Shown in pieces: positions 19,001 through 22,000 of a stretch of 25,367 bases of DNA. Location: IMG/VR virus record IMGVR_UViG_2706794680_000004. One strand, given 5' to 3'. Made by a program: the position numbers. Positions within the stretch are counted from its first letter, which is position 1; each line of letters begins with the position of its first letter. This DNA comes from a virus. Its lineage: Duplodnaviria; Heunggongvirae; Uroviricota; Caudoviricetes.

Positions 19001-22000
19001 CACGGCGCTGTACTGGATAGCCGCCAGTATCAATATCAAACCGGGCCATGATTATTACTTTTATATCCGCAGTGTGAACACCGTTGGCAAATCGGCATTC
19101 GTGGAGGCTGTTGGTCAGCCGAGTGATGATGCATCCGGTTATCTGGATTTTTTCAAAGGCGAGATAGGGAAAACCCATCTGGCTCAGGAGCTGTGGACGC
19201 AGATTGATAACGGTCAGCTTGCGCCTGACCTGGCTGAAATCAGGACGTCCATTACGGATGTCAGCAATGAAATCACGCAGACCGTCAATAAGAAACTGGA
19301 AGACCAGAGTGCGGCAATTCAGCAGATACAGAAGGTTCAGGTTGATACAAATAATAACCTGAACAGCATGTGGGCTGTGAAGCTGCAGCAGATGCAGGAC
19401 GGACGCCTTTATATCGCGGGTATTGGTGCCGGTATTGAGAACACCCCTGACGGCATGCAGAGTCAGGTGCTGCTGGCGGCGGACAGGATTGCGATGGTTA
19501 ATCCTGCGAATGGCAACACAAAACCGATGTTTGTTGGTCAGGGCGATCAGATATTCATGAACGACGTGTTCCTGAAACGCCTGACGGCCCCCACCATTAC
19601 CAGCGGTGGAAATCCATCGGCATTTTCCCTGACTCCGGACGGAAAGCTGACCGCTAAAAATGCGGATATCAGTGGCAGTGTGAATGCGAACGCCGGGACG
19701 CTCAACAATGTCACGGTAAATGAAAACTGTACGATTAAGGGCATGCTGGAGGCGACTCAGGTCAGAGGTGACTTCGTTAAAGCTGTATCCAAATCATTTC
19801 CGAAACAGGCTGGTACGTGGGGTAACACGGAAACACCAAACGGGACGGTTACAGTCACCATAAGCGATGATCATAACTTTGACCGCCAGATTATTATTCC
19901 GCCCATTATTTTTAACGGTATAGCGTATGACGATCCGGGGAGCGGAAATAACCCAGGAGGCACGCGATACACGGGTTATGGTTTTGAAGTTCGCAAAAAC
20001 GGCGTATTAATCGCATCCAGAGAAACTAAAGGTGCCATTCCCGGTAGTTACAGTGCAGTTATTGATATGCCTAGTGGTGGTGGTAGCGTCACTCTGGAGT
20101 TTAAGATTTTCCAGAAAGGCAATCAGGGGGCAGGCAATATCACCGACTGTACGGTGATTGTGACCAAAAAAGCGGCTTCNNNNNNNNNNNNNNNNNNNNN
20201 NNNNNNNNNNNNNNNNNNNNNNNNNNNNNNNNNNNNNNNNNNNNNNNNNNNNNNNNNNNNNNNNNNNNNNNNNNNNNNNNNNNNNNNNNNNNNNNNNNNN
20301 NNNNNNNNNNNNNNNNNNNNNNNNNNNNNNNNNNNNNNNNNNNNNNNNNNNNNNNNNNNNNNNNNNNNNNNNNNNNNNNNNNNNNNNNNNNNNNNNNNNN
20401 NNNNNNNNNNNNNNNNNNNNNNNNNNNNNGAAATACCGTTATGAGTTTACGGATACGCTGGGGCTGGTGACGTCATTCAGCTATGCAGGAGACAAGAATC
20501 GCCAGCTGACCCGTTACAGCGATACCCGCTGGCATGAAGATTCCGTGCGTAACCGCTGGTTCAGCGTGATGGCGGGGCCGTCTGTGCGCGTGAATGAATG
20601 GTTCAGCGCGTATGCGATGGCGGGTGTGGCTTACAGCCGTGTGTCGACTTTTTCCGGGGATTATATCCGCGTAACTGACAATAAGGGGAAAACGCACGAT
20701 GTGCTGACCGGAAGTGATGACGGTCGCCACAGCAACACGTCTCTGGCGCACTGACGGTTTCATCGTGGGTGTCGGTTATAAATTCTGATTAGCCAGGTAA
20801 CACAGTGTTATGACAGCCCGCCGGTTCAGGCGGGCTTTTTTGTGGGGTGAATATGGCAGTAAAGATTTCAGGTGTACTGAAAGACGGCACAGGAAAACCG
20901 GTACAGAACTGCACAATCCAGCTGAAAGCAAAACGTAACAGCACCACGGTGGTGGTGAACACGCTGGCCTCAGAAAATCCGGATGAAGCCGGGCGTTACA
21001 GCATGGACGTTGAGTACGGTCAGTACAGCGTTATTCTGTTGGTGGAAGGATTCCCGCCGTCACATGCCGGGACCATCACCGTGTATGAAGATTCCCGACC
21101 CGGTACGCTGAATGATTTTCTCGGTGCCATGACGGAGGATGATGCCCGTCCGGAGGCACTGCGCCGTTTTGAGCTGATGGTGGAAGAGGTGGCGCGTAAC
21201 GCGTCCGCGGTGGCACAGAACACGGCAGCCGCGAAGAAATCAGCCAGCGATGCCAGCACATCAGCCCGTGAGGCGGCAACCCATGCGACTGATGCTGCAG
21301 ATTCAGCACGTGCAGCCAGCACGTCAGCCGGACAGGCCGCTTCGTCGGCTCAGTCAGCGTCTTCCAGCGCAGGAACGGCATCAACAAAGGCCACTGAAGC
21401 CTCAAAAAGTGCTGCCGCTGCAGAGTCCTCAAAAAGCGCGGCGGCTACCAGTGCCGGTGCGGCGAAAACGTTAGAAACGAATGCGGCAGCGTCACAACAA
21501 TCAGCAGCCACTTCTGCATCCACCGCGACCACGAAAGCGTCAGAAGCTGCCACCTCAGCCCGGGATGCGTCGGCTTCAAAAGAGGCGGCAAAATCATCAG
21601 AAACGAACGCATCATCAAGCGCCAGTAGCGCAGCTTCCTCGGCGACGGCGGCTGCAAATTCTGCGAAGGCGGCCAAAACGTCCGAGACGAACGCCAGGTC
21701 TTCTGAAACGGCAGCGGGACAGAGTGCCTCAGCTGCGGCAGGCTCAAAAACAGCGGCTGCGTCGTCTGCCAGCGCCGCGTCAACAAGTGCCGGGCAGGCC
21801 TCAGCCAGTGCCACCGCCGCCGGAAAATCGGCAGAAAGCGCCGCATCATCCGCTTCAACAGCCACAACGAAGGCTGGCGAAGCCACTGAGCAGGCCACGG
21901 CAGCAGCGAGGTCAGCTTCCGCAGCGAAGACATCCGAAACGAACGCGAAAGCGTCGGAAACCCGTGCAGAATCCTCAAAAACGGCTGCCGCATCGTCCGC

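Follow-up and report, generated by a model that had tools for sequence, protein, structure and literature searches.

A three-part mosaic J protein in a lambda-like prophage carries a 434-type receptor-binding domain that most likely targets OmpC

The stretch of DNA analysed here (the window) is the 25,367-nucleotide virus record IMGVR_UViG_2706794680_000004 (Caudoviricetes) of the IMG/VR database, and it is the late part of a prophage of the lambda-like kind. Lambdavirus-like phages, PhiR42_1, Kati and mEp332 among them, match it at 96-97% identity over 88-93% of its length. Gene J, which encodes the tip attachment protein (the central tail fibre), is the subject of this study. Its visible part occupies positions 16701..20179 on the plus strand, as 1159 complete codons and two further bases, and the gene takes the position that it has in lambda's late operon, behind the tail-tip genes and ahead of lom, stf and tfa; the annotated order of tail assembly protein, J, lom and tail fibre recurs in lambda and in related records. 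We found that this J protein is a mosaic and that its C-terminal receptor-binding domain (RBD) belongs to the type carried by phage 434, which makes OmpC rather than LamB its probable receptor.

A preliminary description of this DNA had noted that the open reading frame beginning at 16701 is already 27 codons longer than lambda J (1132 amino acids) when it enters a run of N at 20180, and this is correct. It had also proposed closing the gap, a masked run of 250 N at 20180..20429. The gap could be closed with three IMG/VR contigs whose sequence on either side of the mask (1180 bp on the left, 1071 bp on the right) is 100% identical to that of the window, and in these contigs the true sequence is 247 bp long. 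It comprises the last six codons of J (SGISIR) with the stop codon, a 72-nucleotide spacer that separates the J stop from the ATG of lom, and roughly the first 53 lom codons. Thus the mask hides only six codons of J, and the full-length protein has 1165 amino acids and ends in ...KKAASGISIR. The J genes of phi458, WGPS6 and a prophage of E. coli NCTC9967 end in the same way, and in NCTC9967 the layout of the whole gap region (J end, spacer, lom start) matches. The spacer holds a GC-rich, terminator-like hairpin followed by a T run. The window contains four N runs of 250-286 positions (3143-3428, 15773-16022, 20180-20429 and 25027-25287); as the true length of the third is 247 bp and not 250, the lengths of the N runs are not exactly those of the sequences that they hide.

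Pfam domains were matched in J, all above cut-off, in the order PF24801 (residues 86-207), PF13550 (330-498), PF24421 (610-714) and PF24489 (718-818), with PF09327 (872-1000) and PF12421, or Ig_GpJ_C, which Pfam describes as a receptor-binding domain (1029-1158; E-value 8e-23), in the C-terminal part. The protein therefore consists of hub domains, two fibronectin type III/immunoglobulin (FNIII/Ig) domains, a tail-tip fibre made up of a shaft and a straight fibre, and a C-terminal Ig-like RBD. By its Pfam content it has the domain order of the lambda gpJ family. In lambda, gpJ is a homotrimer at the tail tip that opens when the receptor is bound (PMC11101478).

We compared J, segment by segment and at the amino-acid level, with the J proteins of lambda (NP_040600, 1132 amino acids; PDB 8iyk, 8xck and 8xcj), 434 (OL657226, UMO75286.1, 1137 amino acids), phage 21 (OL657228, UMO75436.1, 1160 amino acids), phi330 (PV189401), phi458 and WGPS6; of the five comparisons suggested in the preliminary description (lambda, 434, phi80, HK97 and N15), the first two are covered here. 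Residues 1-805 (16701..19115, plus strand), which form the hub and the two FNIII/Ig domains, are common property, with identities of 97% (lambda and phage 21) and 98% (434). Residues 806-950 (19116..19550, plus strand), the alpha-helical shaft (AHS) and the central straight fibre's proximal portion, are a non-lambda module: they are 97% identical to phage 21 and 100% identical to phi458, compared with 51% for lambda and 52% for 434, with 28 gap columns in each of the last two alignments. Residues 951-1005 (19551..19715, plus strand) form a conserved island that is shared by all of the J types (95% identity to lambda, 91% to 434 and 85% to phage 21). Residues 1006-1159 (19716..20179, plus strand), for which the evidence is the alignment, the Pfam match and an AlphaFold2 (AF2) model, are a 434-type RBD. 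J is thus a mosaic of an N-terminus that is lambda-like, in the sense that lambda, 434 and phage 21 have it in common, a shaft of the phage 21 type and an RBD of the 434 type.

This arrangement contradicts the earlier view that J tracks lambda closely until it reaches its C-terminus. The lambda-like parts are limited to residues 1-805 and 951-1005, and between them lies a segment that is barely half identical to lambda and that has a net insertion of 28 residues. The extra residues, relative to both lambda and 434, lie at about 836-866 and, by the limits set for the lambda AHS (809-861; limits and domain names from Ge & Wang, PMC11101478), they fall within the alpha-helical shaft. Shaft and proximal fibre together make up a second non-lambda module in J, which the preliminary description overlooked, and its shaft is four heptads longer than that of lambda or 434. 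Since the lambda shaft refolds upon receptor binding, a longer one might alter the length of the fibre or its triggering. In total, J has 33 residues more than lambda J, 28 of them contributed by the shaft module and five by the RBD. The conserved island is likely to be where recombination joined the shaft module to the RBD module, and it includes the point (lambda residue 964) at which Brodel et al. fused their gpJ chimeras (PMC11338833). J thus offers an example of natural module exchange at a site where chimeras are already being joined by design.

Divergence of the C-terminus from lambda, as first proposed, was evident: from approximately 19722 (E1008; the alignment places the change at codon ~1006, ~19716) to the mask, J is only 41% identical to lambda in amino acids and 52% in nucleotides. 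The preliminary description had set more than 90% identity as the mark of a lambda-like C-terminus, and the value obtained is far below it. Insertions and deletions separate the two proteins at lambda positions 1011/1012, 1044-1051, 1078/1079 and 1099-1114, giving the RBD of the window a net gain of five residues (+2, +6, +1, +2 and -6). The extra segments that had been reported in this part of the protein reduce to a single six-residue insertion in the stretch that was cited; the remainder of that stretch aligns with lambda, though divergently, and the additional length of J is mainly found upstream, in the shaft.

It was the alignment with 434 J that settled the identity of the domain. Over residues 1006-1165 the window protein is collinear with 434 J, with 94% amino-acid identity (95% in nucleotides over the last 160 residues) and no gap columns, whereas the same residues are 41% identical to lambda (17 gap columns), 43% to phage 21 (11 gap columns) and 46% to phi330 (11 gap columns). 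The RBDs of phi458 and of the Shiga toxin (Stx) phage WGPS6 are 97% identical to it. The earlier suggestion of a mosaic replacement of the receptor-specificity determinant is therefore upheld, with a 434-type domain as the replacement. Phage 434 resembles the window in its RBD type, in loops L2 and L3 (described below), in the C-terminal ...KKAASGISIR and in its J-lom-stf-tfa gene context; unlike the window, it has the short, lambda-type shaft, 28 residues shorter across 806-950, and its Stf protein has 437 amino acids compared with 1029. Lambda gpJ shares family, domain order, genomic position and Ig-like RBD fold with the window protein, yet differs from it in its shaft and at each of the four variable sites of the RBD.

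The combination of a long shaft with a 434-type RBD is not peculiar to this prophage, being found in phi458, WGPS6 (an Stx2a phage), 2851, cdtI, mEp460, mEp332, Ayreon and E. coli prophages that include the one in NCTC9967. The J protein of phi458 is 98% identical to that of the window over all 1159 residues, while in WGPS6 the N-terminal 800 residues are only 75% identical. Among the 5426 complete E. coli genomes, 2112 contain the 450 nucleotides that encode the window RBD (2108 of them at an identity of at least 90%), and a single genome may have as many as seven copies. At the protein level, 74 phage records carry the domain at an identity of at least 90%, among them mEp460, mEp332, cdtI, 2851, WGPS6, Ayreon, Evi, 2B8 and many Stx1a and Stx2c phages, and in a large protein database it occurs in E. 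coli, E. albertii and Shigella sonnei. The RBD of lambda itself was detected in 98 of the 5426 genomes, always at an identity of at least 99%, and the five lambda-RBD genomes among the matches listed are all laboratory strains; the phi330-type RBD is present at an identity of at least 90% in roughly 1870 complete E. coli genomes. Relatives of the window RBD show a break in identity between those at 85% or above and those at 57% or below, with one fragment at 70%, which indicates that these domains exist as discrete alleles. The divergent C-terminus is thus not a product of chance; it is a discrete allele that is present in thousands of genomes.

These data also dispose of the idea that the divergent end of J is an artefact, whether of mis-assembly at the gap, of pseudogene decay or of a chimeric contig. 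That idea draws on the facts that the reading frame runs into N and that the adjoining lom gene has suffered an 83-bp deletion. Its probability is, in our judgement, close to nil: no stop interrupts the frame over 1159 codons, it is closed at 1165 amino acids by three independent contigs with identical flanks, the N are distributed across the window in four masks of similar size, and the prevalence of the domain among phages and E. coli genomes is as described above. We rejected it on the strength of that prevalence and of the contigs that close the gap.

The 434-type RBD was next considered as a structure. In the PDB the best sequence match for J is the A8 gpJ chimera (9wca, E-value 3e-85), followed by lambda gpJ (8xcj, 8iyk). 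An AF2 monomer model of residues 961-1159 gave a confident RBD (predicted local distance difference test score 83-94) and a disordered fibre part, and the top Foldseek matches of the modelled RBD were A8 gpJ in its closed form and in its open form with OmpC (9wca/9wcb) and lambda gpJ in its closed form and in its open form with LamB (8xck/8xcj). A8, whose RBD is of the same type as that of phi330, is the best PDB match in both sequence and structure. It shares its fold with the window RBD, and the two probably share a class of receptor, the trimeric general porins.

Four loops, placed by the alignment and by the strand and loop positions of the AF2 model, are predicted to contact the receptor; all are encoded on the plus strand. 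L1 (residues ~1035-1047; 19803..19841) is two residues longer than in lambda and six longer than in phi330 and phage 21; it corresponds to the lambda indel site at 1012 (PMC6646904) and to the phi330 loop T918-Y921 (PMC12502783). L2 (residues ~1076-1088; 19926..19964) has six residues more than lambda and is identical to that of 434; it corresponds to the lambda indel site at 1048-1049 (PMC6646904) and to the phi330 hairpin E953-S962, for which insertion into the OmpC barrel is predicted (PMC12502783). L3 (residues ~1108-1114, ETKGAIP; 20022..20042) has one residue more than lambda, is also identical to that of 434, and corresponds to the lambda site at 1077-1078 (PMC6646904). L4 (residues ~1139-1147, KGNQGAGNI; 20115..20141) has a net loss of four residues relative to lambda and corresponds to the lambda site at 1107 (PMC6646904) and to the phi330 hairpin A1015-P1020, which contacts the rim of OmpC (PMC12502783). 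The positions at which the window RBD gains or loses residues relative to lambda are therefore those of the four indel-rich regions of J (1012, 1048-1049, 1077-1078 and 1107) that Maddamsetti et al. associated with the diversification of host range (PMC6646904), and three of the four correspond to loops that are predicted to contact OmpC in phi330 or in 434 (PMC12502783). They appear to be the 'bottom loops' L1-L4 of Ge & Wang, and by that correspondence we infer a role for them in receptor contact.

All four loops match those of 434 in length and, essentially, in sequence, with three substitutions at the edges of L1 (Q1036K, A1037V and N1047D) and one in L4 (G1143R). The loops of the lambda LamB-type RBD have not been kept, each of the four sites being altered in length. 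Nor is the RBD of the A8/phi330 type with its OmpC-contacting hairpins, as both hairpins (at L2 and L4) differ in length and in sequence; in A8/phi330 L1 is six residues shorter, L2 is one residue shorter and L4 is longer. Because of these differences in loop length and the low identity of the domains, the details of the A8/phi330 contacts cannot be transferred to the window protein. By analogy with lambda and with the A8 chimera, the trimeric RBD would most likely dock with a trimeric porin by inserting the four distal loops; binding would then spread the RBD protomers, and the resulting twist would pass up the central straight fibre and the shaft to open the tail tip for the ejection of DNA.

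The classic source for the use of OmpC by phage 434 is said to be the work of Hantke in 1978. OmpC is the 434 receptor, and lambda becomes an OmpC-binding phage when it is given the 434 gene in place of its own J (Ge & Wang 2024, PMC11101478; PMC12502783). The sequenced lambda h434 imm21 hybrid (OM418627, positions 15505-18918; described in PMC9119081) has, where lambda and 434 differ, lambda alleles up to approximately lambda nucleotide 17650-17750, or about J codon 730, and 434 sequence from there on, through lom, stf and tfa; the position of this crossover, inside J, shows that the h434 host range travels with the C-terminal third of J together with these three 434 genes. In addition, OmpC is reported to rank second in frequency of use as a receptor for lambdoid phages of the mEp series (PMC11893012), and both mEp460 and mEp332 carry the RBD of the window. 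Phages with this RBD that plate on E. coli K-12, according to the host fields of their records, include Ayreon, mEp332, PhiR34_1 and phi458. We consider it probable, from the comparison of sequences, that the 434-type RBD of this three-part mosaic J binds OmpC and not LamB. The preference for OmpC among the porins comes from the 94% identity to 434 and from the identical loop lengths.

The preliminary description had reached a related conclusion, a receptor other than LamB, by arguing that a domain divergent from that of lambda should have a different receptor. Near-identity to an OmpC phage supports the conclusion, but the argument is in general unsafe. The RBDs of phage 21 and of phi330/A8 are of one type and have the same loop lengths, but the native receptor of phage 21 is LamB (PMC11336670) and that of phi330 is OmpC, as established by deletion and complementation (PMC12502783). 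Distance from lambda does not by itself predict the receptor, and the assignment to OmpC rests on nearness to 434. We also discarded overall RBD similarity as a guide (the window is nearer to A8/phi330 than to lambda) because phage 21, a LamB phage, has a phi330-like RBD. The existence of two receptors within one RBD type implies that the choice between LamB and OmpC depends, within that type, on a modest number of substitutions, and phage 21 and phi330 would make a useful natural pair for mapping the determinants.

The example of phage 21 raises the possibility that the window RBD, although divergent from that of lambda, uses LamB after all, just as phage 21 does with a non-lambda RBD of its own that is similarly far from lambda's (about 43% identical to that of the window; PMC11336670). 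The window and phage 21 share the N-terminal 805 residues and the long shaft module, with the same 28 additional residues, at 97% identity in each case, and a well-conserved receptor such as LamB would suit an allele that is found in 39% of E. coli genomes. The resemblance to phage 21 does not extend to the RBD, which is of the 434 type instead; 434 is an OmpC phage, and all four variable loops differ in length from those of lambda. We regard the use of LamB as quite improbable. Phage 21 itself can evolve the use of OmpC and OmpF (PMC11336670).

Several observations weigh against the assignment of OmpC to the window J. Literature searches found no experiment on this exact J allele and, in the papers searched, no published receptor data for mEp332, mEp460, phi458, WGPS6, 2851, cdtI, Ayreon, the PhiR collection or the E. 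coli prophages with the same shaft and RBD. Ten differences from 434 are present in residues 998-1165, and four of them (the three in L1 and the one in L4) are in or beside predicted contact loops; in lambda, about four substitutions in J are enough to add the use of OmpF (PMC6646904). The relationship between RBD type and receptor is not one-to-one, as phage 21 and phi330/A8 demonstrate, and the shaft of the window protein is of the phage 21 type and not the 434 type. Finally, the 434 segment of the h434 hybrid includes lom, stf and tfa as well as the end of J, so that the hybrid alone does not separate the contribution of J from that of Stf.

The substitutions in L1 and L4 might direct the domain to another porin, such as OmpF, or to a restricted set of OmpC alleles. 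Phi458, WGPS6 and 434 also vary from one another at these sites; the natural OmpC-binding gpJ variants A8 and 1A2 accept sharply different OmpC alleles (PMC11338833); and a few mutations in J confer the additional use of OmpF or OmpC on lambda and on phage 21 (PMC6646904, PMC11336670). Set against this are the identity of L2 and L3 to those of 434, the overall identity of 94% without an indel, and the fact that K-12 is a plating host for relatives that have these variants, just as it is for 434. We therefore think a change of porin or a narrowed OmpC range unlikely, and OmpC remains the preferred receptor. A related proposal, which is also unlikely, is that the residues at the edges of L1 and L4 (1036, 1037, 1047 and 1143), which reassort among 434, WGPS6, phi458 and the window prophage, act together with the long phage 21-type shaft to give an OmpC-allele range or a porin unlike that of 434. 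If so, this common allele family would represent a natural series of receptor-tuning variants.

Other candidates for an experimentally characterised bearer of the window RBD were considered and set aside. The RBD of phi330, which uses OmpC and is close to WGPS6, is of the A8 type and about 46% identical. The Eligo variant A8 has a different sequence, as was seen in the PDB sequence search, and the Eligo variant 1A2 is unlikely to be this allele, for it does not deliver into K-12 with the K-12 OmpC, whereas phages with the allele plate on K-12.

The RBD allele is already known and very common, being the long-known h434 host-range determinant, and, with some two fifths of the complete E. coli genomes carrying it, it has little value as a discovery. 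The practical benefit is the naming of a probable receptor, OmpC, for a J allele that is very common among prophages and that is also found on Stx1a-, Stx2c- and Stx2a-converting phages and on cdtI and 2851. It is the LamB-type domain of lambda that is the rare one in nature.

The conserved island of J also bears on a host defence. In lambda, residue F924 of gpJ triggers HepS, a prophage-encoded abortive-infection nuclease, and Gifsy phages escape HepS by having an isoleucine at the equivalent position (PMC13043305). The equivalent residue in the window J, F952 (I951-F952, in the region of 19551-19556), is conserved, and a manual count shows that J keeps 25 of the 32 amino acids that form the trigger peptide in lambda (equivalent residues 930-961). 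The window J would probably be sensed by HepS.

Downstream of the mask lies the remainder of lom (20430..20754, plus strand; stop codon at 20752-20754), which encodes an outer-membrane protein of the Ail/Lom family. The 83-bp deletion in lom lies between 6-bp direct repeats (junction at ~20743-20748) and causes a frameshift, so that the protein ends at about residue 160 of 199. A 30-mer that spans the junction had no match in species-representative genomes and was found in ten IMG/VR contigs, among them the three that close the gap in J; the deletion is therefore a variant in circulation, as opposed to an error confined to this sequence. The stf gene (20847..23936, plus strand) is intact and encodes a side tail fibre of 1029 amino acids, a second adsorption device of the same virion. 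The side tail fibre of Ur-lambda has 774 amino acids. The N-terminal ~330 residues of the window Stf are 85% identical to lambda orf-401, and towards the C-terminus the protein has a collar domain and a His-rich tip of the GxHxH type; its receptor may differ from that of the Ur-lambda side fibre. The tfa gene (23936..24517, plus strand) encodes a tail fibre assembly chaperone of 193 amino acids (PF02413, E-value 5e-44).

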